Virus record (IMG/VR): IMGVR_UViG_2529293076_000030
DNA length: 20,824 nt
DNA from: a virus
Taxonomy: Duplodnaviria; Heunggongvirae; Uroviricota; Caudoviricetes
Reading direction: 5' to 3' (one strand)
The position numbers were made by a program, and so were the translations under genes. The notes beneath the pieces are model-generated. The model was not told the origin of the DNA, did no database searches, and saw nothing but the letters and a program-made list of their open reading frames with translations. Positions 1 through 20,605 of the stretch are shown piece after piece. Position 1 is the stretch's first letter. Each line of letters begins with the position of its first letter.

Positions 1-1143
1 CTATGCTGTTTTGATATCTACGATAATCCAGTCTTTACCACGATCATCATTGTATCGGTCGGTCATTTTTCTGGATTTATGACCTAACAACTTTTGCGTA
101 TCCAGACCCTGTTCCCGATATAACCGTTCTGACAGAGATCGCTGCTCATGAAATGTGGGCGCAGTTCCTTGCTCCCATTTTATGCCACATTTTTCCCTGG
201 CCTTTTTAAAAGCCGTTGTAAGAGTATTTGCAGACACCTGGTCTCCTCTGTTTGCTTGAGAGGTAGTGTGACGGTAATGGACCAGATATTTACTAACAAC
301 AGCATCCCTGCACTGAGATATAACTTCACGAAGGGTAATATTCAGAGCATCGCATTTCAGGTTAAGCGGAATAGCAAGTTTTGAACCGGTTTTTTCCTGA
401 GTAATGTGCAACATGTCGTCCCAGATATCAGAGAATTTCAAATTGCAGATATCGCTTAAACGTTGTCCAGTGACAAGAGCAAGTAGCATCCCGCATTTTA
501 AATAGGGCTGCCGTCTGCTTACGCTGTCAAATATTGCCTGCCATTCGGGCAGTGATAATCTTTGACGGTTTACTCGATTTCGCGGTTGTTTTGTTGCCTG
601 CGCTGGGTTAAATCCTGGCGGAACATGTCCTGCGTGTTGTGCTTCTTTGAAGACGTCGATCAACACCATTCTCACGACTTGCGCCATCCTGTTATGACCT
701 TCAGCCTTTACAGCATCAATTATTTCGGCAATATCAAGTGCGGTAATATCCTTGAGGTGTTGCATTCCACAATGCTCACGGAAAAGACGGATGGGTTTGC
801 CTTTTTGCCGATAGGAGTTGGGTCTTAGTTCATTATGTTGCAGCCTGTCCTCCTGGATAGAATTATATTTATCAAGCCATTCTGTCACCGTAATGTCTGA
901 GCGCCTGCCTTTCATTCTTTCCAGACGCTCATTGACGCTTAATATTTGTCGGGTACGTTGTTCAGCAATAATGGTATTTGCTTCAGTAGCAACTTGTTTT
1001 GCTTCATTCTCATCAGTTCCTAAGCTATGAAAACGACCGGATAGTGGATGTTTGTATTGCCAATATACCTTTCCGGTTCGCTTATCTAATTTGCAATATA
1101 AATTGGGTATAGAGATTTTGTGAGATCGGGGGCTAGCAGCCAT
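1..1143 (-). CDS. int: Lambda-family tyrosine integrase (380 aa); stop codon at window positions 1-3
   Basis: Complete minus-strand ORF. N-terminus (SPRSHK...PNLYCKLDKRTGKVYWQY) and C-terminus (PTFHEQRSLSERLY...LLGHKSRKMTDRYNDDRG) align by eye with lambda Int arm-binding and catalytic regions, including the box-II HxxR and catalytic Tyr context. Recognition from memory. Confidence 0.85.
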   Translation of the reverse strand: MAASPRSHKISIPNLYCKLDKRTGKVYWQYKHPLSGRFHSLGTDENEAKQVATEANTIIAEQRTRQILSVNERLERMKGRRSDITVTEWLDKYNSIQEDRLQHNELRPNSYRQKGKPIRLFREHCGMQHLKDITALDIAEIIDAVKAEGHNRMAQVVRMVLIDVFKEAQHAGHVPPGFNPAQATKQPRNRVNRQRLSLPEWQAIFDSVSRRQPYLKCGMLLALVTGQRLSDICNLKFSDIWDDMLHITQEKTGSKLAIPLNLKCDALNITLREVISQCRDAVVSKYLVHYRHTTSQANRGDQVSANTLTTAFKKAREKCGIKWEQGTAPTFHEQRSLSERLYREQGLDTQKLLGHKSRKMTDRYNDDRGKDWIIVDIKTA

Positions 1144-1369
1144 CAGCGATTATCCGTTGGAGTTTTGGGTTTGCGTTTATTGGGAGTTGCGGTTCTGCAA
1201 GCGTTCCTACAAAACGGGAATTTCGGTCAATCATCCAGTAGCGACCAACTTTTATAGCGGGTGGGGCCATCATTTTCCCTTGCGCGTATTTTTTCAGAAC
1301 TCGCTCACTTGGTGCTAAGTCCCCAAATTCTTCTTTAGCCCAGTCCCGTAAAGTGATTAGTCGAGACAT
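1133..1369 (-). CDS. xis: Excisionase-like small DNA-binding protein (78 aa)
   Basis: Small basic ORF immediately upstream of int, overlapping its start by 11 nt. Strong SD (GAGGAGG on minus strand, + coords 1371-1379) before the ATG. Position and size typical of lambdoid Xis. Confidence 0.6.
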   Translation of the reverse strand: MSRLITLRDWAKEEFGDLAPSERVLKKYAQGKMMAPPAIKVGRYWMIDRNSRFVGTLAEPQLPINANPKLQRIIADGC

Positions 1370-1472
1370 TTGTCCTCCTCTTAGCTGCTGAGGGAGTTTG
1401 TGACCGATATATCTGACATGATATTAAGCTCATGGCAGGTACATCTCTTGACTGGTCATAGAGATAAATTTA

Positions 1473-2297
1473 ATGCTGAGAAATGCAGTATTGAATTTAT
1501 CAATTTTTCACCAGCTTCTGGTCTTTCTGGCTGTCATGCGCAAAACATATGGCTTTAATAAAAAACTGGATTGGGTTAGCAACGAGCAACTTTCCGAATT
1601 AACCGGGATATTGCCGCACAAGTGTTCTGCTGCAAAAAGTGTTCTGGTAAAGCGTGGGATTTTTATTCAGAGCGGGCGGAATACCGGCATTAATAATGTG
1701 GTCAGTGAATGGTCAACATTACCCGAATCAGGTAAGAAAAATAAAGTTTACCTGAAAGAGGTAAATTTACCTGAATCAGGTAAAAAAAGTTTACCCAAAT
1801 CAGGTAAAGGCGTTTACCCGAATCAGGTAAACACAAAAGACAAACTAACAAAAGACAATATAAAACCTTTTTCGTCCGAGAATTCTGGCGAATCCTCTGA
1901 CCAACCAGAAAACGATCTTCCTGTGGTGAAACCGGATGCTGCAATTCAGAGCGGCAGCAAGTGGGGGACAGCAGAAGACCTGACCGCCGCAGAGTGGATG
2001 TTTGACATGGTGAAGACCATCGCGCCATCAGCCAGAAAACCGAATTTTGCAGGGTGGGCTAACGATATCCGCCTGATGCGTGAACGTGACGGACGTAACC
2101 ACCGCGACATGTGCGTGCTGTTCCGCTGGGCATGCCAGGACAACTTCTGGTCCGGTAACGTGCTAAGTCCGGCCAAACTCCGCGACAAGTGGACCCAGCT
2201 CGAAATCAACCGTAACAAGCAACAGGCAGGCATGATAGCCAGCAAACCAAAACTCGACCTGACAAACACTGACTGGATTTACGGGGTGGATTTATGA
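1473..2297 (+). CDS. O: Replication initiator O (274 aa); C-terminal two thirds near-identical to lambda O, N-terminal DNA-binding part divergent and about 36 aa shorter
   Basis: Residues from ~FSSENSGESSDQPENDL to the C-terminus (..TNTDWIYGVDL) match lambda O as I recall it. Central part encodes repeated LPESGKK peptides from the iterons. No SD before the ATG at 1473; the frame opens after a TGA at 1449-1451. Confidence 0.85.
   Translation: MLRNAVLNLSIFHQLLVFLAVMRKTYGFNKKLDWVSNEQLSELTGILPHKCSAAKSVLVKRGIFIQSGRNTGINNVVSEWSTLPESGKKNKVYLKEVNLPESGKKSLPKSGKGVYPNQVNTKDKLTKDNIKPFSSENSGESSDQPENDLPVVKPDAAIQSGSKWGTAEDLTAAEWMFDMVKTIAPSARKPNFAGWANDIRLMRERDGRNHRDMCVLFRWACQDNFWSGNVLSPAKLRDKWTQLEINRNKQQAGMIASKPKLDLTNTDWIYGVDL
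1719..1830. repeat. Replication origin iterons: five 17-bp near-palindromic repeats (TTACCYGAATCAGGTAA-like) inside the O gene, followed by an A-rich stretch (1831-1867)
   Basis: Repeats seen directly at 1719-1735, 1750-1766, 1767-1783, 1791-1807 and 1814-1830. Arrangement (iterons then AT-rich region within the O linker) matches the organisation of ori-lambda, but with five copies and a different repeat sequence. Confidence 0.75.
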
Positions 2298-2995
2298 AAA
2301 ACATCGCCGCACAGATGGTTAACTTTGACCGTGAGCAGATGCGTCGGATCGCCAACAACATGCCGGAACAGTACGACGAAAAGCCGCAGGTACAGCAGGT
2401 AGCGCAGATCATCAACGGTGTGTTCAGCCAGTTACTGGCAACTTTCCCGGCGAGTCTGGCTAACCGTGACCAGAACGAACTGAACGAAATCCGCCGCCAG
2501 TGGGTTCTGGCTTTCCGGGAAAACGGGATCACCACAATGGAACAGGTTAACGCAGGAATGCGCGTAGCCCGTCGGCAGAATCGACCATTTCTGCCATCAC
2601 CCGGGCAGTTTGTTGCATGGTGCCGGGAAGAAGCATCCGTTATCGCCGGACTGCCAAACGTCAGCGAGCTGGTTGATATGGTTTACGAGTATTGCCGGAA
2701 GCGTGGCCTGTATCCGGATGCAGAGTCTTATCCGTGGAAATCGAACGCGCATTACTGGTTGGTTACCAACTTGTACCAGAACATGCGGGCCAATGCGCTG
2801 ACTGACGCGGAATTACGGCGCAAGGCTGCCGATGAACTGACCTGTATGACAGCGCGAATTAACCGTGGTGAGACGATACCTGAACCAGTAAAACAACTTC
2901 CTGTTATGGGCGGTAGACCTCTAAATCGTGCACAGGCTCTGGCGAAGATCGCAGAAATTAAAGCTAAGTTCGGACTGAAAGGAGCAAGTGTATGA
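2294..2995 (+). CDS. P: Replication protein P (DnaB helicase loader), 233 aa
   Basis: Near-identical over full length to lambda P as recalled (MKNIAAQMVNFDREQMRRIANNMPEQYDEKPQ...AKFGLKGASV). ATGA overlap with O stop. Confidence 0.92.
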   Translation: MKNIAAQMVNFDREQMRRIANNMPEQYDEKPQVQQVAQIINGVFSQLLATFPASLANRDQNELNEIRRQWVLAFRENGITTMEQVNAGMRVARRQNRPFLPSPGQFVAWCREEASVIAGLPNVSELVDMVYEYCRKRGLYPDAESYPWKSNAHYWLVTNLYQNMRANALTDAELRRKAADELTCMTARINRGETIPEPVKQLPVMGGRPLNRAQALAKIAEIKAKFGLKGASV

Positions 2996-3294
2996 CGGGC
3001 AAAGAGGCAATTATTCATTACCTGGGGACGCATAAGAGCTTCTGTGCACAGGACGTTGCCGCGGTAACAGGTGCAACCGTAACCAGCATAAATCAGGCTG
3101 CGGCTAAAATGGCGCGGGCAGGAATCCTGGTCGTTGATGGTAAGGTCTGGCGAACGGTGTATTACCGGTTCGCTACCAGAGAAGAACGGGAAGGAAAGGT
3201 GAGCACGAATCTGATTTTTAAGGAGTGTCGCCAGAGTGCCGCGATGAAACGGGTATTGAGGGTATATAAAAGAACATCAATGGGTACACAATGA
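2992..3294 (+). CDS. ren: Ren protein (100 aa), C-terminal end differs from lambda Ren
   Basis: MTGKEAIIHYLGTHKSFCAQDVAAVTGATVTSINQAAAKMARAGILV... matches lambda Ren; the last ~10 residues diverge, consistent with a recombination junction at the 3' end. ATGA overlap with P. Confidence 0.8.
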   Translation: MTGKEAIIHYLGTHKSFCAQDVAAVTGATVTSINQAAAKMARAGILVVDGKVWRTVYYRFATREEREGKVSTNLIFKECRQSAAMKRVLRVYKRTSMGTQ

Positions 3295-3311
3295 TGAAAC
3301 AGGTGAGTTGA

Positions 3312-3346
3312 GTTCAAACTGTAGTACAATTCTCTCCAGTTTGAAC
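3312..3346 (+). promoter_or_regulatory. Perfect 10-bp inverted repeat (GTTCAAACTG / CAGTTTGAAC) with 15-nt loop, 15 nt upstream of emrE start; function unknown
   Basis: Seen directly. No U-tract follows, so not a canonical intrinsic terminator. An SD-like AGGAAAG (3347-3353) follows before the emrE ATG at 3362. Confidence 0.3.
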
Positions 3347-3361
3347 AGGAAAGAATATGTT

Positions 3362-3694
3362 ATGAACCCTTATATTTATCTTGGTGGTGCAATACTTGCA
3401 GAGGTCATTGGTACAACCTTAATGAAGTTTTCAGAAGGTTTTACACGGTTATGGCCATCTGTTGGTACAATTATTTGTTATTGTGCATCATTCTGGTTAT
3501 TAGCTCAGACGCTGGCTTATATTCCTACAGGGATTGCTTATGCTATCTGGTCAGGAGTCGGTATTGTCCTGATTAGCTTACTATCATGGGGGTTTTTCGG
3601 CCAACGGCTGGACCTGCCAGCCGTTATAGGCATGATGTTGATTTGTGCCGGTGTGTTGGTTATTAATTTATTGTCACGAAGCACACCACATTAA
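3362..3694 (+). CDS. emrE: Small multidrug resistance (SMR) efflux transporter EmrE, 110 aa
   Basis: MNPYIYLGGAILAEVIGTTLMKFSEGFTRLWPSVGTIICY... matches E. coli EmrE essentially full length, including the conserved membrane-embedded Glu (E14) context. The ORF-track start at 3308 is an upstream extension. Confidence 0.92.
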   Translation: MNPYIYLGGAILAEVIGTTLMKFSEGFTRLWPSVGTIICYCASFWLLAQTLAYIPTGIAYAIWSGVGIVLISLLSWGFFGQRLDLPAVIGMMLICAGVLVINLLSRSTPH

Positions 3695-3724
3695 AAATAA
3701 TTTCTTTTAAAAGACTGCAATATG

Positions 3725-3757
3725 GCGGTTCATATCTTTACATGGGCCGCTTTTGTT
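3725..3757 (+). terminator. Candidate intrinsic terminator downstream of emrE
   Basis: Imperfect 9-bp stem (3725-3733 / 3742-3750, two G-U pairs), 8-nt loop, then TTTTGTT. Confidence 0.4.
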
Positions 3758-3938
3758 AATGTTTTTAGTTTTTGTGTATTCTTTTGTGCCTTCAAGATTA
3801 TTGCGTAAGCAAATTGCAATACGATTATTGTTGTATATTCAAGATAGTGTGATCGTAATTGTCTTTTTAAATAAAAATTAAACAAAAATTATATCTCACC
3901 ACTAAGGTTTATAAAAGCATAAGTTAGCAGGTGTCACC

Positions 3939-5465
3939 ATGAAAAAAGCCATAGCATATATGCGATTTTCATCACCAGGTCAGATGTCTGGCGACTCATT
4001 AAACCGACAGAGAAGACTTATTGCTGAATGGTTAAAGGTAAATAGTGATTATTATCTTGATACCATAACATATGAAGATTTAGGATTAAGTGCATTCAAA
4101 GGAAAGCATGCACAATCAGGAGCTTTTTCGGAATTTTTAGATGCTATAGAGCATGGTTATATATTGCCAGGAACTACATTGTTAGTTGAAAGTCTGGACA
4201 GACTTTCAAGAGAAAAAGTCGGTGAAGCGATTGAACGTCTGAAATTGATTTTGAATCACGGTATTGATGTTATAACTCTTTGCGACAATACAGTCTATAA
4301 TATTGACTCTTTGAATGAGCCATATTCATTAATAAAAGCCATACTTATAGCACAAAGGGCAAATGAAGAAAGCGAGATAAAGTCAAGTCGGGTTAAATTA
4401 TCATGGAAGAAAAAACGGCAGGATGCACTGGAATCAGGTACGATTATGACGGCGTCTTGTCCGAGATGGCTCTCCTTAGATGACAAAAGAACGGCTTTTG
4501 TTCCAGACCCCGACAGGGTGAAAACTATTGAGCTAATTTTTAAACTCAGGATGGAAAGGCGCTCATTGAATGCAATAGCCAAGTATTTAAATGATCATGC
4601 TGTAAAGAATTTCTCAGGAAAAGAAAGTGCATGGGGGCCTTCTGTAATTGAAAAATTATTAGCGAATAAAGCTCTGATAGGTATATGCGTACCTTCATAT
4701 CGTGCAAGAGGGAAAGGGATAAGTGAAATCGCTGGCTATTATCCCAGAGTCATATCAGATGATTTGTTTTACGCTGTACAGGAAATTCGGTTGGCACCTT
4801 TTGGTATTAGCAATAGTAGCAAGAATCCTATGCTAATAAATCTACTTCGAACAGTTATGAAGTGTGAGGCTTGTGGTAATACCATGATTGTTCATGCGGT
4901 ATCTGGAAGTTTGCATGGCTATTATGTTTGTCCGATGAGAAGATTACATCGATGTGACAGGCCATCAATAAAGAGAGATTTGGTTGATTATAATATCATT
5001 AATGAATTGCTTTTTAATTGTAGCAAAATTCAACCAGTTGAAAACAAGAAAGATGCTAATGAAACTTTAGAGTTAAAAATTATTGAGCTTCAGATGAAAA
5101 TTAATAATTTAATCGTTGCATTGTCTGTCGCGCCTGAAGTTACCGCTATAGCAGAGAAAATAAGACTATTAGATAAGGAATTACGAAGAGCTTTGGTATC
5201 ATTGAAAACTTTGAAGAGTAAAGGTGTAAATTCATTCAGTGATTTTTATGCTATTGACTTAACCAGTAAAAATGGACGAGAGTTATGCCGTACACTTGCC
5301 TATAAAATATTCGAAAAAATCATAATTAATACGGATAATAAAACCTGTGATATCTATTTTATGAATGGCATTGTTTTTAAACACTATCCTTTAATGAAAG
5401 TAATATCCGCCCAGCAGGCGATAAGTGCTCTCAAATATATGGTTGATGGTGAGGTTTATTTTTGA
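3939..5465 (+). CDS. ybcK: Large serine recombinase (508 aa), DLP12 YbcK-like
   Basis: N-terminal resolvase-type catalytic motif (AYMRFSSPGQ, with the putative nucleophilic Ser) followed by a long recombinase domain and a Cys cluster (CEACGN...C...C) typical of large serine recombinases. Matches K-12 YbcK in length and position after emrE. AT-rich codon usage. Confidence 0.8.
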   Translation: MKKAIAYMRFSSPGQMSGDSLNRQRRLIAEWLKVNSDYYLDTITYEDLGLSAFKGKHAQSGAFSEFLDAIEHGYILPGTTLLVESLDRLSREKVGEAIERLKLILNHGIDVITLCDNTVYNIDSLNEPYSLIKAILIAQRANEESEIKSSRVKLSWKKKRQDALESGTIMTASCPRWLSLDDKRTAFVPDPDRVKTIELIFKLRMERRSLNAIAKYLNDHAVKNFSGKESAWGPSVIEKLLANKALIGICVPSYRARGKGISEIAGYYPRVISDDLFYAVQEIRLAPFGISNSSKNPMLINLLRTVMKCEACGNTMIVHAVSGSLHGYYVCPMRRLHRCDRPSIKRDLVDYNIINELLFNCSKIQPVENKKDANETLELKIIELQMKINNLIVALSVAPEVTAIAEKIRLLDKELRRALVSLKTLKSKGVNSFSDFYAIDLTSKNGRELCRTLAYKIFEKIIINTDNKTCDIYFMNGIVFKHYPLMKVISAQQAISALKYMVDGEVYF

Positions 5466-5584
5466 GTAATAATCACTTTTTCAACCGTGCTATGGTATGA
5501 AAGTAAAGTAACTACTATGATATTAACTATCGAGCAAGAATATCCCCAGGCACTCAACAGGGCGCAGGTCAACGTGAATCGGTC

Positions 5585-5776
5585 ATGACACGACACCGAT
5601 TTTGCGGAATCAATGTTGCTTATGAATACAACATCCCGCTTAGTACATGTTCAACACATCAGCAAATTTTGAACTGGGTGTGGCACTTAACTGAAAAAAC
5701 ATGGATGACACAAAATGTTACTCGTCGCTTCATTGAAGTAGCTTGTGGATATCACAAGCTAGACTATCGCCAATGA
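5585..5776 (+). CDS. Hypothetical 63-aa ORF; possibly a gene remnant rather than a real gene
   Basis: ORF only. No convincing SD. C-terminal ...RRFIEVACGYHKLDYRQ is faintly reminiscent of AraC-family C-termini; in K-12 the AraC-type gene ybcM lies at this position. Speculative. Confidence 0.2.
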   Translation: MTRHRFCGINVAYEYNIPLSTCSTHQQILNWVWHLTEKTWMTQNVTRRFIEVACGYHKLDYRQ

Positions 5777-5871
5777 TATTCAATTTTTGATTTTTTAGTA
5801 TCAACCTTCCATAATAATGTCACCGGAGCTTGAACAACTCCGGTGACTTCTGCGCATTTAAGGGGACTTAA

Positions 5872-5970
5872 ATGCGACCACAATCTGAACTCCTTACCTT
5901 GTCACAGATGCAGAAATGCACCTGCGATGTCTTGCATCCAGCGTTTGATCTCTGCGGAGGTGAAGCGTGA
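5872..5970 (+). CDS. ylcH: Small protein YlcH-like (32 aa)
   Basis: ATG 5872; translation [32 protein letters not shown]. Stop TGA overlaps the GTG start of the next gene (GTGA). Position immediately upstream of ybcN as in DLP12. Identity from memory is uncertain. Confidence 0.4.
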
Positions 5971-6422
5971 ACCTCCCACAAGATGGCATCAAATTACATC
6001 GCGGTAACTTCACCGCTGTCGGTCAGCAGATCCAGACTTATCTGGAAGACGGCAAATGCTTTCGCATGGTGCTTAAACCGTGGCGCGAGAGACGCAGTCT
6101 TTCCCAGAATGCACTCAGCCACATGTGGTACAGCGAAATCAGTGAATACCTCATCAGCAGGGGGAAATCGTTCGCTACTTCAGCATGGGTAAAAGATGCT
6201 CTCAAACACACATACCTCGGTTATGAAACCAAGGACCTGGTTGATGTCGTAACCGGCGAAATCACTACTATCCAGTCGTTACGCCATACCTCCGATCTTG
6301 GTACCGGAGAGATGTATGTCTTCCTGTGTAAGGTTGAAGCCTGGGCGATGAATATTGGCTGCCACCTGACTATTCCACAGAGCTGCGAGTTCCAGCTGCT
6401 GCGTGACAAGCAGGAGGCGTAA
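5967..6422 (+). CDS. ybcN: NinB-family protein YbcN (151 aa), GTG start
   Basis: [19 protein letters not shown]...[12 protein letters not shown] matches K-12 YbcN. SD GGAGG at 5956-5960. Confidence 0.85.
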
Positions 6423-6592
6423 TGGCTACACCGCTTATTCGTGTCATGAACGGACACATCTACAAAGTACCAAATCGTCGTAAGCGTAAACCTGAGCTGA
6501 AGCCATCCGAAATACCAACACTGCTCGGATATACCGCCAGCCTGGTTGATAAAAAATGGTTGCGACTGGCAGCAAGGAGGAATCATGGCTGA
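6422..6592 (+). CDS. ninE: NinE (56 aa)
   Basis: [56 protein letters not shown]. Not in the ORF track (<60 aa). ATG overlaps the ybcN stop (TAATG). Confidence 0.8.
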   Translation: MATPLIRVMNGHIYKVPNRRKRKPELKPSEIPTLLGYTASLVDKKWLRLAARRNHG

Positions 6593-6875
6593 TTTGAGAA
6601 AAGCAGCGCGTAGTCGGGAATGCCAAGTAAGAATCCCTGGCGTATGTAATGGCAACCCTGAAACGTCTGTACTGGCACATATCCGGCTGACTGGATTGTG
6701 CGGCACCGGTACCAAACCGCCAGACTTGATTGCCACCATTGCATGTTCTGCCTGCCACGACGAAATCGACCGCCGCACACATTTTGTCGATGCTGCATAT
6801 GCAAAAGAATGCGCGCTGGAAGGTATGGCGAGAACACAGGTTATCTGGCTGAAAGAGGGGGTTATTAAGGCGTGA
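6585..6875 (+). CDS. ybcO: YbcO (DUF1364 putative nuclease), 96 aa
   Basis: True start is ATG at 6585 ([23 protein letters not shown]...), overlapping the ninE 3' end by 8 nt. The ORF-track start at 6546 is an upstream extension. Cys/His-rich motif. Confidence 0.8.
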
Positions 6876-7234
6876 ATACCTACAGCATCACATTACCCTG
6901 GCCTCCGAGCAATAATCGCTACTACCGGCATAATCGCGGGCGCACGCACATCAGCGCAGAAGGGCAGGCATACCGTGATAACGTCGCCCGAATCATCAAA
7001 GGCTCCATGCTGGATATCGGCCTGGCTATGCCAGTGAAAATCCGTATTGAGTGCCACATGCCGGATCGCCGTCGCCGTGACCTGGATAATCTGCAAAAAG
7101 CCGCTTTTGACGCACTCACCAAAGCAGGTTTCTGGCTGGATGATGCTCAGGTCGTTGATTACCGTGTTGTGAAGATGCCCGTTACCAAAGGTGGGAAGCT
7201 GGAGCTGACCATCACCGAACTGGGGAATGAATGA
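6872..7234 (+). CDS. rusA: RusA Holliday-junction resolvase (120 aa), GTG start
   Basis: [25 protein letters not shown]...[30 protein letters not shown] matches E. coli RusA. GTGA overlap with ybcO. Confidence 0.9.
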
Positions 7235-7371
7235 TGTTTGAGTCTTATATGGCAGAACGTCTTCGCCACCGCTGGATGCGCCTGCGCTTATATCGTTTTC
7301 CTGGTTCTGTTTTGACCGATTACCGGATACTGAAGAATTACGCCAAAACACTGAAAGGAGCTGCCGCATGA
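7231..7371 (+). CDS. ylcG: YlcG-like small protein (46 aa)
   Basis: [46 protein letters not shown]. Overlaps rusA stop and Q start. Confidence 0.6.
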
Positions 7372-8057
7372 ATACCCAATATTTACAGTATGTCCGCGAG
7401 CAACTCATTGTGGCTACCGCTGATTTGAGCGGAGCAACGAAAGGACAGCTTGAAGCCTGGCTGGAGCATGCACAATTTGATACTGGTACATACAAACGAA
7501 AGAAGCCGCGCATTCTGGATGAGGTAACTGGCAGGATGATTACGCTGGATAATCCGCCGATTTCCGGTAAGCAGTCGTACGCAAAAGGTTCATCCATTGC
7601 ACTGGTCAGCCAGGTTGAGTTCTCAACCTCGTCATGGCGCCGCGCGGTTCTGTCTCTCGAAGAACATCAGAAAGCGTGGTTGCTGTGGAGTTACAGCGAA
7701 AGTGTTCGCTGGGAACATCAGGTCACCATAACGCAGTGGGCATGGAGCGAGTTTAAGACTCTGTTGGGTACCAGGAAAATTGCAGGTAAGACACTGGAAC
7801 GTTTGAAGAAGTTGATCTGGCTGGCGGCACAGGATGTGAAGAACGAGCTGGCAGGGCGTAAGACCTATGAATACCAGGAGCTGGCATCACTGGTGGGAGT
7901 GACATCAAAAAACTGGTCTGAGACATTTACTGAACGCTGGGTTGCAATGAAACACATTTTTCTACAGCTTGATAGCCAAGCTTTATTGCTTTTAACGAAA
8001 ACACGTTCAAAACAAAAGACCACATTTTCACAGCAAGATATTGCAAAACTGGATTAA
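7368..8057 (+). CDS. Putative late-gene antiterminator (Q-like), 229 aa; not lambda Q
   Basis: Assignment is mainly positional: after rusA/ylcG, before a strong promoter, two intrinsic terminators and the lysis cassette. Sequence lacks the Cys cluster of lambda Q and I do not recognise its family with certainty. Confidence 0.5.
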   Translation: MNTQYLQYVREQLIVATADLSGATKGQLEAWLEHAQFDTGTYKRKKPRILDEVTGRMITLDNPPISGKQSYAKGSSIALVSQVEFSTSSWRRAVLSLEEHQKAWLLWSYSESVRWEHQVTITQWAWSEFKTLLGTRKIAGKTLERLKKLIWLAAQDVKNELAGRKTYEYQELASLVGVTSKNWSETFTERWVAMKHIFLQLDSQALLLLTKTRSKQKTTFSQQDIAKLD

Positions 8058-8069
8058 AAATCATATATT
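8041..8069 (+). promoter_or_regulatory. Candidate sigma70 late promoter (pR'-like): -35 TTGCAA (8041-8046), 17-bp spacer, -10 TATATT (8064-8069)
   Basis: Hexamers and spacing read directly. Overlaps the last codons of the Q-like gene, as pR' does relative to Q in lambdoid phages. Confidence 0.4.
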
Positions 8070-8125
8070 TTATGTAAATCTGATATTTTGCCAATGTTGT
8101 ACGCACTGGCAGTAATCCAAATTCA

Positions 8126-8159
8126 AGCCCGAGGTTTAAAGCCTTGGGCTTTTCTGTTT
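8126..8159 (+). terminator. Intrinsic terminator hairpin plus T-tract
   Basis: Stem AGCCCGAGG / CCTTGGGCT, loop ~5 nt, followed by TTTTCTGTTT. Confidence 0.55.
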
Positions 8160-8238
8160 CTGAACGGTGAGTAGCCTTCCAACCTACCCCAGCCAGGGGG
8201 TCTTCAGCTGTTGAGTTGATATTGCTTAGCCCTCTGTT

Positions 8239-8264
8239 GCCAGCTACATGCTGGCTTTTTTATT
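8239..8264 (+). terminator. Intrinsic terminator (tR'-like)
   Basis: Perfect 6-bp GC-rich stem GCCAGC / GCTGGC, 5-nt loop, then TTTTTTATT. About 188 nt downstream of the candidate promoter start, similar to the ~194-nt lambda 6S RNA. Confidence 0.6.
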
Positions 8265-8378
8265 CCAGGCTTGTGGGGAGCATCAACTCCGTGCTTTGTC
8301 GTTAAATTACCCCGTGAGCCTGATTTCTGACATTTAACGTCCCGGCCTTTTGTCGGCGGCGAAACATTGGCTATTCAT

Positions 8379-8684
8379 ATGCACGAAAAAGAGAGCCTTG
8401 CCGGAGCGTTCTGGCTCGTTTTGCTGATCATCGCAGGTTGGGGCGGTCTGGTCCGCTACCTGATAGATGTGAAGCAGAGTAAAGCAACGTGGAGTTGGAT
8501 AAATGCTCTGGCTCAAATAGTGGTATCAGGATTCACCGGTGTTATTGGTGGCCTGATCAGCATCGAAAGTGGATTCAGTATTTACATGATTCTCGCGACA
8601 GCGGGGATTAGTGGTGCGATGGGTTCGGTTGCACTGACGTACTTCTGGGAACGACTGACAGGGGTGAAAAATGCAAAATCTTAA
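8379..8684 (+). CDS. Putative holin (101 aa from ATG 8379), three predicted transmembrane segments; not lambda S
   Basis: Three hydrophobic stretches (AGAFWLVLLIIAGWGGLV; INALAQIVVSGFTGVIGGLI; IYMILATAGISGAMGSVAL) and a short charged C-terminus. Overlaps the endolysin start by 14 nt, as S/R do in lambda. The ORF-track start at 8367 is a TTG. Confidence 0.6.
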   Translation: MHEKESLAGAFWLVLLIIAGWGGLVRYLIDVKQSKATWSWINALAQIVVSGFTGVIGGLISIESGFSIYMILATAGISGAMGSVALTYFWERLTGVKNAKS

Positions 8685-9147
8685 TCCTCAGCGTAAAGCC
8701 TTCCTCGATATGTTGGCGTGGTCAGAAGGAACGGATAACGGGCGACAACCGACACGTAACCACGGTTATGATGTTATTGTTGGCGGCGAACTGTTTACTG
8801 ATTACTCCGATCACCCTCGCAAACTTGTCACGCTACACCCCAAACTCAAATCAACAGCCGCCGGACGTTATCAGCTTCTTTCACGCTGGTGGGATGCTTA
8901 CCGTAAACAGCTTGGTTTGAAAGACTTCTCCCCCAAAAGCCAGGACGCAGTGGCATTGCAGCAGATTAAAGAGCGTGGTGCTTTACCTATGATTGATCGC
9001 GGTGATATCCGTCAGGCAATCGACCGTTGCAGTAATATCTGGGCTTCACTGCCGGGCGCTGGTTATGGTCAGTTCGAGCATAAGGCTGACAGCCTGATTG
9101 CAAAATTCAAAGAAGCTGGCGGAACGGTCAGAGAGAGTGAGGTATGA
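8671..9147 (+). CDS. R: Endolysin R, lambda-type lytic transglycosylase (158 aa)
   Basis: [47 protein letters not shown]... near-identical to lambda R as recalled. Confidence 0.92.
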
Positions 9148-9605
9148 GCAGAATAACCGCGATTATCTCCGCTCTGCTCATCTGCATCATCGTCTGCCTG
9201 TCATGGGCTGTTAATCATTACCGTGATAACGCCATTACCTACAAAGCCCAGCGCGACAAAAATGCCAGAGAACTGAAGCTGGCGAACGTGGCAATTACTG
9301 ACATGCAGATGCGTCAGCGTGATGTTGCTGCGCTCGATGCAAAATACACGAAGGAGTTAGCTGATGCGAAAGCTGAAAATGATGCTCTGCATGATGATGT
9401 TGCCGCTGGTCGTCGTCGGTTGCACATCAAAGCAGTCTGTCAGTCAGTGCGTGAAGCCACCACCGCCTCCGGCGTGGATAATGCAGCCTCCCCCCGACTG
9501 GCAGACACCGCTGAACGGGATTATTTCACCCTCAGAGAGAGGCTGATCACTATGCAAAAACAACTGGAAGGAACCCAGAAGTATATTAATGAGCAGTGCA
9601 GATAG
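9144..9605 (+). CDS. Rz: Rz inner-membrane spanin (153 aa)
   Basis: [60 protein letters not shown]... near-identical to lambda Rz. Confidence 0.9.
9364..9546 (+). CDS. Rz1: Rz1 outer-membrane lipoprotein spanin (60 aa), nested in the +1 frame of Rz
   Basis: [60 protein letters not shown]: lipobox LVVVGC and proline-rich stretch as in lambda Rz1. Confidence 0.85.
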
Positions 9606-9636
9606 AGCTGCCCATATCGATGGGCAGCTCATGCAA

Positions 9637-9930
9637 TTATTGTGAGCAATACACACGCGCTTCCAGCGGAGTATAAATGCCTAAAGTAATAAAACCGAGC
9701 AATCCATTTACGAATGTTTGCTGGGTTTCTGTTTTAACAACATTTTCTGCGCCGCCACAAATTTTAGCTGCATCGACAGTTTTCTTCTGCCCAATTCCAG
9801 AGACGAAGAAATGGTGGGTGATGGTTTCCTTTGGTGTTACTGCTGCCGGTTTGTTTTGAACAGTAAACGTCTGTTGGGCACATCCTGTAATAAGCAGGGC
9901 CAGCGCAGTAGCGAGTAGCATTTTTTTCAT
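9637..9930 (-). CDS. bor: Bor lipoprotein (serum-resistance moron), 97 aa
   Basis: MKKMLLATALALLITGCAQQTFTVQNKPAAVTPKETITHHFFVSGIGQKK... essentially identical to lambda Bor. Lipobox LITGC. Confidence 0.92.
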   Translation of the reverse strand: MKKMLLATALALLITGCAQQTFTVQNKPAAVTPKETITHHFFVSGIGQKKTVDAAKICGGAENVVKTETQQTFVNGLLGFITLGIYTPLEARVYCSQ

Positions 9931-10211
9931 GGTGTTATTCCCGATGCTTTTTAAAGTTCGCAGAATCGTATGTGTAGAAAATTAAACAAACCCTAAACAA
10001 TGAGTTGAAATCTCATATTGTTAATATTTATTAATGTATGTCAGATGCGAAGGATCGTCACTGTATTCCCGGATTAACTATGTCCGCAGCCCTGACAGGG
10101 AAACTCCTCTGCGGGAGTGTCCGGGAATAATTAATAACGATGCACACAGGGTTTAGCGCGTACACGTATTGAACCGCCCCGGTTTTCCTGGAGAGTGTTT
10201 TATCTGTGAAC

Positions 10212-11099
10212 TCAGGCTGCCAGATCATCGTTTCTGATGGAAGCATAATAAGCTTTTTCTGCTTCTGCCGGAGGGATATGACCCAGCCTTCCCAGCAATC
10301 GTCGATTGTTATACCAGTCCACCCACGTGAGTGTGGCCAGTTCCACTTCTGCACGGTTTTTCCAGCTCTTACGGTGTATTACCTCCGCTTTGTAAAGACC
10401 ATTGATGCTCTCCGCCATCGCGTTGTCATACGAGTCACCTGTACTCCCTGTTGATGCCAGCAGTTTTGCTTCTTTTAGTCGCTCCGTATAGGCCAGTGAT
10501 ATATACTGAGAACCTTTATCACTGTGATGGACTGTGCCGGACGGCCGACGGGCCCACAACGCCTGCTCCAGTGCATCCAGCACGAATGTCGTTTCCATAG
10601 ACGATGAGACTCGCCACCCCACGATACATCCGGCAAACACATCAATGATGAACGCCACATAGACGAAGCCCTGCCATGTGCTGACGTAAGTAAAATCAGC
10701 CACCCACAGCTGGTCAGGACGTTCTGCCACGAACTGACGGTTTACGCGGTCGCCTGCGGAAACGGCTTTCCGGCTGACGGTAGTACGGACCTTTTTACCC
10801 CGGAGAACACCGGCAAGTCCCATAACCGCCATGAGGCGCGCCACTGTACATCTGGCCACCCTGATACCTTCGCGTAACAACTGGCGCCAGACTTTACGCA
10901 CACCGTACACCTGATGATTTTCATCGTATACGCGCTGTATCTCTCTCTTCAGCCAGTCATCGCGCTGAGCACGGGCACTGCGTTTATCAGGATGATGTCG
11001 CTGTTGCTGACAGTGGTAATACGTTGACGGGGCAATATGCAGTTCACTGCATACCGGTCCGACCCCGTACTGCTCACGCAGCTTATCCAGCAGCGGCAT
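10212..11099 (-). CDS. IS629-type transposase OrfB (DDE integrase-like catalytic domain), 295 aa from first ATG; normally expressed as an OrfAB fusion by -1 frameshift
   Basis: Contains DDE-type motifs (WVADFTY..., HSDKGSQY..., YDNAMAESINGLYKAE) characteristic of IS3-family transposases. In the -1 frame relative to orfA. Confidence 0.85.
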   Translation of the reverse strand: MPLLDKLREQYGVGPVCSELHIAPSTYYHCQQQRHHPDKRSARAQRDDWLKREIQRVYDENHQVYGVRKVWRQLLREGIRVARCTVARLMAVMGLAGVLRGKKVRTTVSRKAVSAGDRVNRQFVAERPDQLWVADFTYVSTWQGFVYVAFIIDVFAGCIVGWRVSSSMETTFVLDALEQALWARRPSGTVHHSDKGSQYISLAYTERLKEAKLLASTGSTGDSYDNAMAESINGLYKAEVIHRKSWKNRAEVELATLTWVDWYNNRRLLGRLGHIPPAEAEKAYYASIRNDDLAA

Positions 11100-11425
11100 T
11101 ATTTTTTCCAGAGGCGGTCGAACTCCGCCTTCGCAAAATAAGCGGAAGCCTGGCGAAGGATATCGTTACTGCGGCGCAGTTCACGATTTTCACGTTCCAG
11201 CTCTTTCAGACGCTGACGTTCAGCGGTGGTGAGTCCACCATCACCACTCCCGGTATCCCGCTCATGCTGACGAACCCACACACGCAGAGTCTCTGGTGTA
11301 CAGCCAATCTTTGGGGCAATGGAACAAATTGCCGCCCATTGTGAGTCATATTCGCCCTGACTTTCCAGAACCATACGAACTGCTCGTTGACGGACCTCGG
11401 GGGAAAAACGTGTATTTTTAGTCAT
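11099..11425 (-). CDS. IS629-type transposase OrfA (108 aa, HTH/leucine-zipper part)
   Basis: [57 protein letters not shown]... typical IS3-family OrfA. Ends ...WKK* at an A6 run that overlaps the orfB start. Confidence 0.85.
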
Positions 11426-11534
11426 CCTGTTTACCTCTTTCTCAGGGAGTTTAGTCTCCAGGATTCCCGGGGCGGTTCATATTGCATTATGCCAACGCCC
11501 CGGTGCTGACACGGAAGAAACCGGACGTGATGAT

Positions 11535-11945
11535 TTAGCGTGGAAAGATTTGTGTAGTGTTCTGAATGCTCTCAGTAAATAGTAATGAATTATCAAAGGC
11601 ATAGTAATATCTTTTATGTTCGTGGATATTTGTAACCCATCGGAAAACTCCTGCTTTAGCAAGATTTTCCCTGTATTGCTGAAATGTGATTTCTCTTGAT
11701 TTCAACCTATCATAGGACGTTTCTATAAGATGCGTATTTCTTGAGAATTTAACATTCACAACCTTTTTAAGTCCTTTTATTAACACAGTGTTATCGTTTT
11801 CTAACACAATGTGAATATTATCTGTGGCTAGATAGTAAATATAATGTGAGACATTGTGACGTTTTAGTTCAGAATAAAACAATTCACAGTTTAAATCTTT
11901 TCGCACTTGATCGAATATTTCTTTAAAAATGGCAACCTGAGCCAT
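11535..11945 (-). CDS. ybcV: YbcV-like protein (homologue of lambda ORF p78, DUF1398-type), 136 aa from the SD-preceded ATG; the ORF extends to 12068 if the upstream ATG is used
   Basis: [43 protein letters not shown]... Position between bor and cos as in lambda. SD GGAAGG precedes the ATG at 11945; none precedes the ATG at 12068. AT-rich. Confidence 0.6.
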
Positions 11946-12230
11946 TGGTAAAACCTTCCATGTGATACGAGGGCGCGTAGTTTGCATTATCGTTTTTATC
12001 GTTTCAATCTGGTCTGACCTCTTTGTGTTTTGTTGATGATTTATGTCAAATATTAGGAATGTTTTCAATTAATAGTATTGGTTGCGTAACAAAGTGCGGT
12101 CCTGCTGGCATTCTGGAGGGAAATACAACCGACAGATGTATGTAAGGCCAACGTGCTCAAATCTTCATACAGAAAGATTTGAAGTAATATTTTAACCGCT
12201 AGATGAAGAGCAAGCGCATGGAGCGACAAA

Positions 12231-12437
12231 ATGAATAAAGAACAATCTGCTGATGATCCCTCCGTGGATCTGATTCGTGTAAAAAATATGCTTAATAGCA
12301 CCATTTCTATGAGTTACCCTGATGTTGTAATTGCATGTATAGAACATAAGGTGTCTCTGGAAGCATTCAGGGCAATTGAGGCAGCGTTGGTGAAGCACGA
12401 TAATAATATGAAGGATTATTCCCTGGTGGTTGACTGA
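12231..12437 (+). CDS. ybcW: YbcW-like small protein (68 aa; homologue of lambda ORF p79)
   Basis: [70 protein letters not shown]-like GGAGCG upstream. Confidence 0.6.
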
Positions 12438-12601
12438 TCACCATAACTGCTAATCATTCAAACTACTTAACCTGTGACAGAGCCAACACGCAGTCTGTCA
12501 CTGTCAGGAAAGTGGTAAAACTGCAACTCAATTACTGCAATGCCCTCGTAATTAAGTGAATTTACAATATCGTCCTGTTCGGAGGGAAGAACGCGGGATG
12601 T

Positions 12602-12796
12602 TCATTCTTCATCACTTTTAATTGATGTATATGCTCTCTTTTCTGACGTTAGCCTCCGACGGCAGGCTTCAATGACCCAGGCTGAGAAATTTCCGGACCC
12701 TTTTTGATCAAGAGCGATGTTAATTTGTTCAATCATTTGGTTAGGAAAGCGGATGTTGCGGGTTGTTGTTCTGCGGGTTCTGTTCTTCGTTGACAT
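12602..12796 (-). CDS. ylcI: YlcI-like small protein (DUF3950-type), 64 aa
   Basis: MSTKNRTRRTTTRNIRFPNQMIEQINIALDQKGSGNFSAWVIEACRRRLTSEKRAYTSIKSDEE. Basic N-terminus; position just upstream of cos as in DLP12. Weak SD. Confidence 0.5.
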   Translation of the reverse strand: MSTKNRTRRTTTRNIRFPNQMIEQINIALDQKGSGNFSAWVIEACRRRLTSEKRAYTSIKSDEE

Positions 12797-12939
12797 GAGG
12801 TTGCCCCGTATTCAGTGTCGCTGATTTGTATTGTCTGAAGTTGTTTTTACGTTAAGTTGATGCGGATCAATTAATACGATACCTGCGTCATAATTGATTA
12901 TTTGACGTGGTTTGATGGCGTAGATGCACGTTGTGACAT

Positions 12940-13184
12940 GTAGATGATAATTATTATCATTTTGCGGGTCCTTTCCGGCGATCCGACAGGTTACGGGGCG
13001 GCGACCTCGCGGTTTTTCACTATTTATGAAAATTTTCCGGTTTAAGGCGTTTCCGTTCTTCTTCGCCGTAACCTAATGTTTTTATTTAAAACACCCCCTG
13101 AAAAGAAAGGAAACGACAGGTGCTGAAAACGGGCTTTTTGGCCTCTGTCGTTTCCTTTCTCTGTTTTTGTCCGTGGAATGAACA
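12940..13184 (+). other. cos: Lambda-type cos site: cosQ/cosN/cosB, with the 12-nt cohesive-end sequence GGGCGGCGACCT at 12996-13007
   Basis: ...CCGACAGGTTACG GGGCGGCGACCT CGCGG... read directly, matching the lambda right end/left end junction from memory. Downstream region up to Nu1 matches the lambda cosB region. Confidence 0.85.
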
Positions 13185-13704
13185 ATGGAAGTCAACAAAA
13201 AGCAGCTGGCTGACATTTTCGGCGCGAGTATCCGTACCATTCAGAACTGGCAGGAGCAGGGAATGCCCGTTCTGCGGGGTGGTGGCAAGGGTAATGAGGT
13301 ACTTTATGACTCTGCCGCCGCCATAAAATGGTATGCCGAAAGGGATGCTGAAATTGAGAACGAAAAGCTGCGCCGGGAAGTTGAAGAACTGAGGCAGGAC
13401 AGCGAGACAGATCTCCAGCCAGGGACTATTGAGTACGAACGCCATCGACTTACGCGTGCGCAGGCCGACGCACAGGAACTGAAGAATGCCAGAGACTCAG
13501 CTGAAGTGGTGGAAACCGCATTCTGTACTTTCGTGCTGTCGCGGATCGCAGGTGAAATTGCCAGTATTCTCGACGGGATCCCCCTGTCGGTGCAGCGGCG
13601 TTTTCCGGAACTGGAAAACCGACATGTTGATTTCCTGAAACGGGATATCATCAAAGCCATGAACAAAGCAGCCGCGCTGGATGAACTGATACCGGGGTTG
13701 CTGA

Positions 13705-13730
<26 letters not shown>
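13185..13730 (+). CDS. nu1: Terminase small subunit Nu1 (181 aa)
   Basis: MEVNKKQLADIFGASIRTIQNWQEQGMPVLRGGGKGNEVLYDSAAAIKWYAERDAEIENEKLRREVEEL... near-identical to lambda gpNu1. Confidence 0.95.
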
Positions 13731-17411
<3,681 letters not shown>

Positions 17412-17431
<20 letters not shown>

Positions 17432-18731
17432 TCTCCCGCATATTGCCAGCATGGCTTTTAATGAGCCGCTGATGCTTGAACCCGCCTATGCGCGGGTTTT
17501 CTTTTGTGCGCTTGCAGGCCAGCTTGGGATCAGCCGCCTGACGGATGCAGTATCCGGCGACAGCCTGACTGCCGGAGAGGCACCCGCGGCGCTGGCGTTA
17601 TCCGGTGATGATGACGGACCACGACAGGCCCGGAGTTATCAGGTCATGAACGGCATCGCCGTGCTGCCGGTGTCCGGTACGCTGGTCAGCCGGACGCGGG
17701 CGCTGCAGCCGTATTCGGGAATGACCGGTTACAACGGCATTATCGCCCGTCTGCAACAGGCTGCCAGCGATCCGATGGTGGACGGCATTCTGCTCGATAT
17801 GGACACACCGGGCGGGATGGTGGCGGGAGCATTTGACTGTGCTGACATCATCGCCCGTGTGCGAGACATAAAACCGGTATGGGCGCTGGCCAACGACATG
17901 AACTGCAGTGCAGGTCAGCTGCTTGCCAGCGCCGCCTCCCGGCGTCTGGTCACGCAGACCGCCCGGACAGGCTCCATCGGCGTCATGATGGCTCACAGTA
18001 ATTACGGTGCTGCCCTGGAGAAACAGGGCGTGGAAATCACGCTGATTTACAGCGGCAGCCATAAGGTGGATGGCAACCCCTACAGCCATCTACCGGGTGA
18101 TGTCCGGGAAACACTGCAGTCCCGGATGGATGCAACCCGCCGGATGTTTGCGCAGAAGGTGTCGGCATATACCGGCCTGTCCGTGCAGGCTGTGCTGGAT
18201 ACCGAGGCTGCAGTGTACAGCGGTCAGGAGGCCATTGATGCCGGACTGGCTGATGAACTTGTCAACAGCACCGATGCGATCACCGTTATGCGTGATGCAC
18301 TGGATGCACGTAAATCCCGTCTCTCAGGAGGGCGAATGACCAAAGAGACTCAATCAACAACTGTTTCAGCCACTGCTTCGCAGGCTGACGTTACTGGCGT
18401 GGTGCCAGCGACGGAGGGCGAAAACGCCAGCGCGGCGCAGCCGGACGTGAACGCGCAGATCACCGCTGCGGTTGCGGCAGAAAACAGCCGCATTATGGGG
18501 ATCCTCAACTGTGAGGAGGCTCACGGACGCGAAGAACAGGCCCGCGTGCTGGCAGAAACCCCCGGTATGACCGTGGAAACGGCCCGCCGCATTCTGGCCG
18601 CAGCACCACAGAGTGCACAGGCGCGCAGTGATACTGCGCTGGATCGTCTGATGCAGGGGGCACCGGCACCGCTGGCTGCAGGTAACCCGGCATCTGATGC
18701 CGTTAACGATTTGCTGAACACACCAGTGTAA
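17412..18731 (+). CDS. C: Head maturation protease/scaffold C (439 aa), GTG start at 17412
   Basis: TAELRNLPHIASMAFNEPLMLEPAYARVFFCALAGQLGIS... matches lambda gpC. The ORF-track 17277 start is an in-frame upstream extension overlapping B. Confidence 0.9.
18126..18731 (+). CDS. nu3: Scaffold protein Nu3 (201 aa), nested in-frame in the 3' third of C
   Basis: In-frame ATG at 18126 (MDATRRMFAQKV...) corresponds to the lambda Nu3 internal start, judged from the conserved offset relative to the C stop (lambda 5132..5737). Confidence 0.7.
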   Translation: MDATRRMFAQKVSAYTGLSVQAVLDTEAAVYSGQEAIDAGLADELVNSTDAITVMRDALDARKSRLSGGRMTKETQSTTVSATASQADVTGVVPATEGENASAAQPDVNAQITAAVAAENSRIMGILNCEEAHGREEQARVLAETPGMTVETARRILAAAPQSAQARSDTALDRLMQGAPAPLAAGNPASDAVNDLLNTPV

Positions 18732-18740
18732 GGGATGTTT

Positions 18741-19073
18741 ATGACGAGCAAAGAAACCTTTACCCATTACCAGCCGCTGGGCAACAGTGACCCGGCTCAT
18801 ACCGCAACCGCGCCCGGCGGATTGAGTGCGAAAGCGCCTGCAATGACCCCGCTGATGCTGGACACCTCCAGCCGTAAGCTGGTTGCGTGGGATGGCACCA
18901 CCGACGGTGCTGCCGTTGGCATTCTTGCGGTTGCTGCTGACCAGACCAGCACCACGCTGACGTTCTACAAGTCCGGCACGTTCCGTTATGAGGATGTGCT
19001 CTGGCCGGAGGCTGCCAGCGACGAGACGAAAAAACGGACCGCGTTTGCCGGAACGGCAATCAGCATCGTTTAA
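18741..19073 (+). CDS. D: Head decoration protein D (110 aa)
   Basis: [52 protein letters not shown]... matches lambda gpD. SD AAGGGA at 18730-18735. Confidence 0.92.
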
Positions 19074-19093
19074 CCTGACCCTTCATCACTAAA

Positions 19094-19115
19094 GGCCGCC
19101 TGTGCGGCTTTTTTT
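19094..19115 (+). other. Short GC hairpin (GGCCGC / GCGGC) followed by T7, between D and E
   Basis: Seen directly. Terminator-like, but it lies inside the late operon, so more likely an RNA stability or attenuation element. Confidence 0.3.
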
Positions 19116-19128
19116 ACGGGATTTTTTT

Positions 19129-20154: not shown

Positions 20155-20156
20155 TC

Positions 20157-20181
20157 ATGGCCCTTCGGGGCCATTGTTTTT
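20157..20181 (+). other. Hairpin with UUCG tetraloop (ATGGCCC-TTCG-GGGCCAT) followed by TGTTTTT, between E and FI
   Basis: Seen directly: perfect 7-bp stem and the very stable UUCG loop. Confidence 0.35.
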
Positions 20182-20195
20182 CTGTGGAGGAGTCC

Positions 20196-20594
20196 ATGAC
20201 GAAAGATGAACTGATTGCCCGTCTCCGCTCGCTGGGTGAACAACTGAACCGTGATGTCAGCCTGACGGGGACGAAAGAAGAACTGGCGCTCCGTGTGGCA
20301 GAGCTGGAAGAGGAGCTTGATGACACGGATGAAACTGCCGGTCAGGACACCCCTCTCAGCCGGGAAAATGTGCTGACCGGACATGAAAATGAGGTGGGAT
20401 CAGCGCAGCCGGATACCGTGATTCTGGATACGTCTGAACTGGTCACGGTCGTGGCACTGGTGAAGCTGCATACTGATGCACTTCACGTCACGCGGGATGA
20501 ACCTGTGGCATTTGTGCTGCCGGGAACGGCGTTTCGTGTCTCTGCCGGTGTGGCAGCCGAAATGACAGAGCGCGGCCTGGCCAGAATGCAATAA
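20196..20594 (+). CDS. FI: DNA-packaging protein FI (132 aa)
   Basis: MTKDELIARLRSLGEQLNRDVSLTGTKEELALRVAELEEELDDTDETAGQDTPLSRENVLTGHENEVG... matches lambda gpFI. The ORF-track 20157 start is an extension. Confidence 0.9.
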   Translation: MTKDELIARLRSLGEQLNRDVSLTGTKEELALRVAELEEELDDTDETAGQDTPLSRENVLTGHENEVGSAQPDTVILDTSELVTVVALVKLHTDALHVTRDEPVAFVLPGTAFRVSAGVAAEMTERGLARMQ

Positions 20595-20605
20595 CGGGAG
20601 GCGCT

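Follow-up and report, generated by a model that had tools for sequence, protein, structure and literature searches.

The window analysed here, a 20,824-nt stretch of viral DNA (IMG/VR record IMGVR_UViG_2529293076_000030), begins with two genes on the minus strand. One encodes a full-length tyrosine integrase of the phage 21 type, which integrates at icd (1-1143; 380 aa), with full-length Arm-DNA-bind_1 and Phage_integrase domains in Pfam. The other encodes a 78-aa excisionase (1133-1369), which scores 24.1 bits against a cut-off of 23 for the Pfam Exc family and is annotated as an excisionase in both E. coli O157:H7 Sakai and phage 21. On the plus strand there follow the annotated replication gene O (ORF 1473-2297), a full-length P gene of lambda type (2294-2995; Pfam Phage_lambda_P positions 1-162/162, E = 9.5e-62), a ren homologue (2992-3294; so annotated in Sakai and LSU61) and a gene for an emrE-like SMR transporter (3362-3694; Pfam Multi_Drug_Res). 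The ORF table and the Pfam assignments agree with the original prediction that xis and the annotated O are only 103 bp apart on opposite strands, and that no repressor, Cro or recombination gene lies between them.

To which element does this DNA belong? Bases 1-3000 find full-length, 100% matches by megablast in E. coli O157:H7 genomes, Sakai and EDL933 among them. When the whole window is compared directly with Sakai by BLAST, bases 1-10171 are 100% identical and bases 11480-20824 are 99.9% identical; the sole structural difference is 1,308 additional bases at 10172-11479. The Sakai counterpart runs from 1618350 on, is annotated as "prophage Sp8; lambda-like phage", and has icd immediately upstream. 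After icd, the Sakai gene order is integrase, excisionase, two "phage replication proteins", ren exclusion protein, SMR transporter, serine recombinase, nin-type genes, Q, lysis, terminase and head. Sequence identity, adjacency to icd, and the lack of any repressor, cro or general recombination gene identify the window as the left part of Sp8, the defective lambdoid prophage found at icd in typical E. coli O157:H7. The EDL933 copy is named CP-933X in the literature, and Sp8 and CP-933X are the same element as that in the window (Hayashi 2001; Asadulghani et al. 2009, PMC2669165). Shaaban et al. 2016 count SP8 among the "fixed" prophages conserved across O157 strains. No tRNA genes were found in the window.

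The additional 1,308 bases are an IS3-family insertion of the IS629/IS1203 type, located between ybcV and bor and missing from both Sakai and LSU61. The element carries orfB (10212-11099) and orfA (11099-11425), both on the minus strand, and the ALIL frameshift pseudoknot of IS3 elements (11028-11144), which is the only Rfam family found in the window. The insertion lies in the path of the late transcript, some 240 bp upstream of the bor start. Its left junction, at 10172, has no match above 87% identity in 5,426 complete E. coli genomes, and the insertion looks strain-specific. A further feature of the element is a large serine recombinase gene of the ybcK type (3939-5465; 508 aa; Resolvase, Recombinase and Zn_ribbon_recom domains in Pfam), which lies in the nin region and comes in addition to the tyrosine integrase of the prophage.

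Bases 1-1509 form an unbroken phage-21-type int-xis module, to which phage 21, ev017, 4A7 and others match at 98.7-99.5%; the DNA of the int-xis region is 98.7% identical to that of phage 21. Three features of a phage-21-type integration module are present, namely a full-length tyrosine integrase, an excisionase and, in Sakai, adjacency to icd. The module does not end at the start of xis. The DNA upstream of xis (1370-1509) continues the int-xis sequence without a break in phage 21, ev017, 493/89 and LSU61, and in intact relatives this stretch separates xis from the stop codon of a DUF4222 gene. A search of 1370-1509 for a hidden cI, cro or N, any of which would have spoken against the deletion proposed in the original prediction, found none, these bases being native intergenic sequence that belongs with int-xis.

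Within this spacer, at 1463-1501 on the plus strand, lies a terminator-like hairpin of 16 pairs followed by AATTTTTC, and the local fold of 1440-1540 has a z-score of -3.8. The hairpin also occurs in undeleted LSU61 (L006 10207-10245) and is a native part of the int-xis module. It is AT-rich, with a T-run, it lies just past the DUF4222 stop codon, and it is conserved in the phage-21-type int-xis module. One possibility for its role in intact phages is that of a terminator against antisense read-through from icd.

Where, then, does the int-xis module end and the replication module begin? The phages that match the left half of the window are not those that match the right half: the matches to the left half end at 1509, and those to the right half begin there, bases 1509-3000 being about 98% identical to O-P-ren DNA of other lambdoid phages. 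A three-way alignment with base-by-base extension places the junction at 1509/1510, 37 nt into the ORF annotated as O. The join reads ...TTATCAATTTTTC followed directly by ACCAGCTTCTGG..., and the C at 1509 is the sole base common to both parents, a microhomology of 1 bp. Not one of 50,697 phage genomes has a record spanning the junction. In contrast, a 161-bp probe centred on the junction is matched end to end in 296 of 5,426 complete E. coli genomes, the remaining matches stopping or beginning at probe base 80 (window 1509). Every serotype-labelled carrier among the genomes listed is O157:H7. The original prediction had looked to alignment against other phages and DLP12 for the breakpoint, which it expected within 1370-1472. 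Alignment did locate the junction, though 37-139 bp to the right of that interval and inside O, and the scar in DLP12 proved to be an independent one. A sequence unique to the junction is, for example, TTATCAATTTTTCACCAGCTTCTGG.

The nature of the join becomes clear from two O157 strains, 493/89 (O157:H-, sorbitol-fermenting) and LSU61 (O157:H7), in which the same prophage lies undeleted at icd. By BLAST, the 493/89 prophage matches the left flank (1-1509) at 99.7%, with 4 mismatches and no gaps, and the right flank at 100% over 3,000 bp, and holds 5,747 bp more than the window between the two. For LSU61 the corresponding values are 99.0%, 99.9% over 8,663 bp, and 5,748 bp. The left flank of LSU61 (L006 about 8756-10253) aligns with window 1-1509 over 1,509 columns with a single gap, and is 11 bases shorter than both the window and 493/89. 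These early-branching O157 strains are sister lineages of the Sp8 carriers rather than proven ancestors; their sequence is of the ancestral type. The undeleted order int-xis...cI-cro-O-P is in fact widespread, being found in 1,198 of 5,426 E. coli genomes when at least 80% coverage of the LSU61 int-to-P segment is required.

The segment present in 493/89 and LSU61 and missing from Sp8 is the early region. According to annotation, the ORF list and PHROG assignments, it includes genes for DUF4222, a TraR/DksA-like zinc-finger protein and three small conserved orfs, as well as exo, bet, gam and kil. It continues with a control region of approximately 600 bp, the pL and pR/operator regions, and genes for a cI-type repressor that has an S24 peptidase domain, for a cro-like regulator and for a cII-like activator (phrog_163), and also takes in 231 nt from the start of the ORF annotated as O. 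The immunity region proper (cI, cro, and divergent pL and pR with operators) is at L006 14140-15164 in the undeleted relative and is not in the window. The original prediction, that a defective lambdoid prophage has lost its immunity and early-left region at a deletion junction, is right at its core, and agrees both with the lack of any phage that spans the join and with the undeleted versions at icd.

In one respect that prediction went too far. It counted N among the genes lost, and N loss cannot be attributed to the Sp8 deletion, because the undeleted relatives themselves have no annotated or recognisable N gene; all they have is an arginine-rich ORF of 40 aa that matches no PHROG. In LSU61, the interval between kil and cI (L006 13538-14140) is only about 600 bp long, and contains this 40-aa ORF, with a KRTRERR motif, and palindromic operator-like repeats. 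An Rfam search (E <= 0.1) over the undeleted early region found no family, neither a nut/put-type nor an OOP-type RNA. Either antitermination in the LSU61-type phage is N-independent, or these "intact" relatives are themselves N-defective.

The reading that we prefer, and hold with high confidence, is that Sp8 has lost about 5.75 kb in a single illegitimate internal deletion, at a microhomology of only 1 bp, and that silencing of the element followed from it. The event joined a point just past the stop codon of DUF4222, the first early-left gene upstream of xis, to codon 48 of O.

What remains of O? The ORF at 1473-2297 encodes a chimeric, 5'-truncated protein of 274 aa, here called O', made of 12 fortuitous codons (MLRNAVLNLSIF, 1473-1508) joined to O residues 48-309. 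The 12 codons are read from the antisense of the spacer upstream of xis. When the Sp8 ORF is aligned with the O proteins of LSU61, PhiR70_1, lambda and ev017, the first 47 residues of O, which natively begins M(A/T)NTA..., are seen to have been replaced by these 12 unrelated ones. In lambda, the origin is bound by the N-terminal domain of O. The Pfam profile Phage_rep_O (PF04492) matches O' over positions 28-95 of 95, with 69.6 bits, and the intact O of PhiR70_1 over 1-95, with 115.6 bits; O' therefore has an incomplete origin-binding domain that lacks profile positions 1-27. From about residue 130 of the Sp8 ORF, in contrast, the C-terminal, P-interacting half hardly differs from its lambda counterpart. 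No solved structure for O was found by sequence. Thus the original prediction was right about P, which is of full length, and wrong in taking the replication genes as a whole to be intact, as O has been deprived of its native start and SD and of 47 codons at its 5' end.

The translation signals of O have been lost as well. The native O start, with a GGAGG SD (gcgGGAGGaattATG; GGAGGaattATG at L006 15851-15862), is within the deleted DNA. The lack of an SD before the ATG at 1473, pointed out in the original prediction, is readily explained, because this ATG is a fortuitous start, the native start and SD having been deleted; it lies, moreover, inside the stem of the hairpin. In principle a shorter O' that retains the HTH core could be made from an internal start, such as Met22 (ATG 1536).

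A promoter for O' had also been suggested, consisting of TTGACT (1448-1453) and, after a 17-bp spacer, TAATGC (1471-1476). The elements are indeed at these positions, and the -35 is a good one, but the proposed promoter is not credible: the -10 has no more than 2 of its 6 bases in common with TATAAT, and the pair is absent from our consensus scan. A transcript from it would start inside the ORF, because the -10 overlaps the ATG at 1473. The scan, in which the total of promoter-like sites was below the shuffled expectation, found no plus-strand promoter-like site from position 1 to 3671.

The replication origin inside O is intact (1719-1862). It consists of five palindromic iterons (TTACCYRAAWSAGGTAA; 1719-1830; repeat families D1/D2 and I1-I8), in the place of the lambda ori iterons, and an A-rich tract (1833-1862). 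From the missing part of the origin-binding domain we infer that O' is unable to bind these iterons. Besides O bound to the iterons, lambda-type origins need transcriptional activation from pR (PMC7466680).

Are O and P, and the genes beyond, expressed? This question, raised with the original prediction, is largely answered by published data, in which the region is essentially silent and the prophage neither excises nor replicates (PMC4048457, PMC2669165). Landstorfer et al. 2014 (PMC4048457, Table S4) carried out strand-specific RNA-seq of EDL933 under 11 conditions, with expression given as RPKM. The neighbouring icd gene has values of 25-1583 and int (Z1866) at most 1, while Z1867, the next ORF after int, is at 0 in all conditions and is among 144 silent genes. 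Values for O (Z1868) are 0-2 in nine conditions, 3 in faeces and 9 with antibiotics, and those for P (Z1869) 0-2, all of which could be affected by multi-mapping reads, as O and P have paralogues in other O157 prophages (a 3-kb query finds 3 places in Sakai). For Q (Z1874) the values are 0-7 and for the lysis genes 0-3. Rightward from the junction, clear expression is first seen in the emrE-like gene (Z1870), with 4-49 in 10 of 11 conditions and 0 with antibiotics, and bor (Z1878; about 9637-9930 in the window) reaches 0-221. These two are the only clearly expressed genes in this part of CP-933X (PMC4048457), and they behave as self-transcribed cargo genes.

As to the behaviour of the prophage, Asadulghani et al. 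2009 (PMC2669165) describe Sp8 as being without a repressor (CI/Cro), an anti-repressor and general recombination genes. Sp8 was predicted to be excisable, yet no circularization, replication or packaging was found, with or without mitomycin C (PMC2669165, Table 2). How might the deletion account for these published facts? The loss of pR would leave O', P, ren, the nin genes and Q without a promoter, and the late genes would then not be switched on from within the element. Similarly, with pL and the cII-like activator gone, int and xis would be unexpressed, and excision would not take place. An O' lacking part of its origin-binding domain, together with the absence of transcription across the origin, would mean that the intact iterons are not fired. 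By these causal links, which we infer, Sp8 would be locked in the chromosome and vertically inherited, with only the self-promoted cargo genes, such as the emrE-like gene and bor, expressed.

Other defects may contribute to the failure of Sp8 to excise. The int-xis region differs from that of 493/89 by 4 nucleotides, of which 3 are non-synonymous, and at all three positions phage 21 shares the 493/89 residue; the changes specific to Sp8 are R4S and G230S in Int and Q8R in Xis. These substitutions are compatible with relaxed constraint after silencing. A homology search of Sakai 1618000-1663500 and 1662000-1682000, which cover the annotated right end of Sp8 and 20 kb beyond it, turned up neither a further copy of the icd 3' end, the expected attR, nor one of the phage 21 att region. 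The attR of Sp8 may therefore have been lost. The right end carries ISEc8, ompT, IS1203 and a ypjA fragment, and is followed by minE. The potential loss of attR and the Int and Xis substitutions are possible extra causes of non-excision.

It is worth considering other ways in which int-xis might have come to lie beside O. Might some lambdoid phages simply be built in this order, with nothing having been deleted? Lambdoid genomes are mosaics, and the halves of the window do match different sets of phages. However, the check proposed with the original prediction, whether phages naturally place int-xis beside O, found no such arrangement spanning the join among the 50,697 genomes, all matches stopping or starting at 1509. 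The join also cuts O at codon 48, removing the start and SD, the same prophage is undeleted at the same site in 493/89 and LSU61, and the undeleted order occurs in 1,198 genomes. We give this natural mosaic hardly any probability at all. A recombination between prophages, in which int-xis at icd was joined illegitimately to the O-to-tail part of a different resident lambdoid prophage, deserves slightly more thought. O157 has many similar lambdoid prophages, which are known to recombine (PMC2669165), and in the comparison with LSU61 the left flank (99.0%) is somewhat more diverged than the right (99.9%). Yet both flanks are found in one prophage of 493/89, at 99.7% and 100%, and the four left-flank differences are point changes and not a module swap. 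Because the 493/89 flanks are collinear in one icd prophage, a single internal deletion suffices, and a second parental prophage seems very unlikely. One might also suspect a false join, since prophage paralogy can collapse assemblies, but an identical junction in 296 independently finished genomes leaves an assembly or sequencing artefact with no credibility.

A different kind of alternative accepts the join and questions the silence. Is Sp8 a satellite-like passenger, which co-resident prophages could activate in trans through their regulators, Q or O? The element keeps int, xis, ori, P, Q and the packaging and morphogenesis genes; its iterons are intact, and lambda-type O/P paralogues are present in other resident prophages. 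Complementation between prophages is documented in O157 (PMC2669165), and one paper names CP-933X as one of the prophages that have genes strongly induced by antibiotics, O being at RPKM 9 under that condition (PMC4048457). The antibiotic signal, however, may reflect cross-mapping from paralogues. Direct tests for circularization, replication and packaging of Sp8, with and without mitomycin C, found none (PMC2669165), and an attR copy was not detected. We think it extremely unlikely that Sp8 is such a helper-dependent element, and return to the single internal deletion and silencing as the reading that best fits the evidence.

Does the scar do anything for its host? If O' were made at a low level, with its P-binding half kept and its origin-binding domain crippled, then O' and the iterons might together act as a dominant-negative or titrating factor against superinfecting or co-resident lambda-type phages. 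Were this true, the scar would be a selected exclusion device and not the result of neutral decay; we consider the proposal a very long shot. An exclusion of lambda by origin titration, the "inhibition phenotype", is already known, and needs oop transcription and iterons on multicopy plasmids (PMC3349717). We rejected exclusion of that type for Sp8, in which the region upstream of O, where lambda oop lies, is deleted.

The loss of the early region from Sp8 is ordinary and was already published; our additions, which are minor, are the exact breakpoint, the size of 5,747-5,748 bp and the truncated, chimeric O. The deletion offers a simple cause for the published behaviour of a prophage that was predicted to be excisable and that neither excises nor replicates. 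The gene annotated everywhere as Sp8 "replication protein O" is a truncated chimera. The junction may also serve as a clean clade marker, as it is in 296 finished genomes and is missing from the early-branching 493/89 and LSU61. The practical value of the refinement is small.

How does Sp8 compare with better known phages and prophages? Close counterparts are the icd prophages of 493/89 and LSU61, which are 99.0-100% identical to Sp8 in what they share with it: the site, the int-xis module, O (codon 48 onward), P, ren, emrE, ybcK and the nin, Q, lysis and head genes. Unlike Sp8, they keep the 5.75-kb early region, that is, DUF4222, TraR, exo, bet, gam, kil, cI, cro, the cII-like gene and the 5' end of O. 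From Sakai Sp8 the window differs by the additional IS629/IS1203-type insertion at 10172-11479. Phage 21 and its relatives (ev017, 4A7 and others) have an int-xis module that, together with the 139 bp upstream of xis, is 98.7-99.5% identical, and they likewise have an attachment site in icd; unlike Sp8, these phages are complete, and some 8-11 kb of early-left and immunity genes separate their xis from O.

The comparison with lambda concerns O and ori. The C-terminal half of O is nearly the same in the two, and in both the origin lies inside O and is composed of iterons and an A/T-rich tract. The N-terminal specificity domain of Sp8 O is, however, of another type than that of lambda, the iterons number five rather than four, and the residues equivalent to lambda O 1-47 are missing. 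The earlier survey of the Sakai prophages scored the O and P of Sp8 as "apparently functional" (PMC2669165), a call that the 5'-truncated, chimeric O described here corrects.

DLP12, a cryptic prophage of K-12, offers a parallel. It has the same P'-ren-emrE-ybcK-ybcN-ninE-rusA-...-rzpD-bor-ybcV-nohD backbone as Sp8, at 94-99.5% identity, and bears a scar of the same kind, intD-xisD'-exoD' abutting a truncated peaD, a P fragment, with the immunity region gone. After peaD, the DLP12 renD gene is split by IS3 (L010 2359-3275 versus window 2684-3082). In other respects DLP12 differs from Sp8, having another integrase and another site, argU, and having wholly lost O and the origin as well as the morphogenesis genes. 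Its deletion is an independent one, with the right breakpoint inside P, at the equivalent of window 2684, and the left in exo. Taken together, Sp8 and the independent scar of DLP12 point to loss of the early control region as a recurrent route to prophage decay and domestication.
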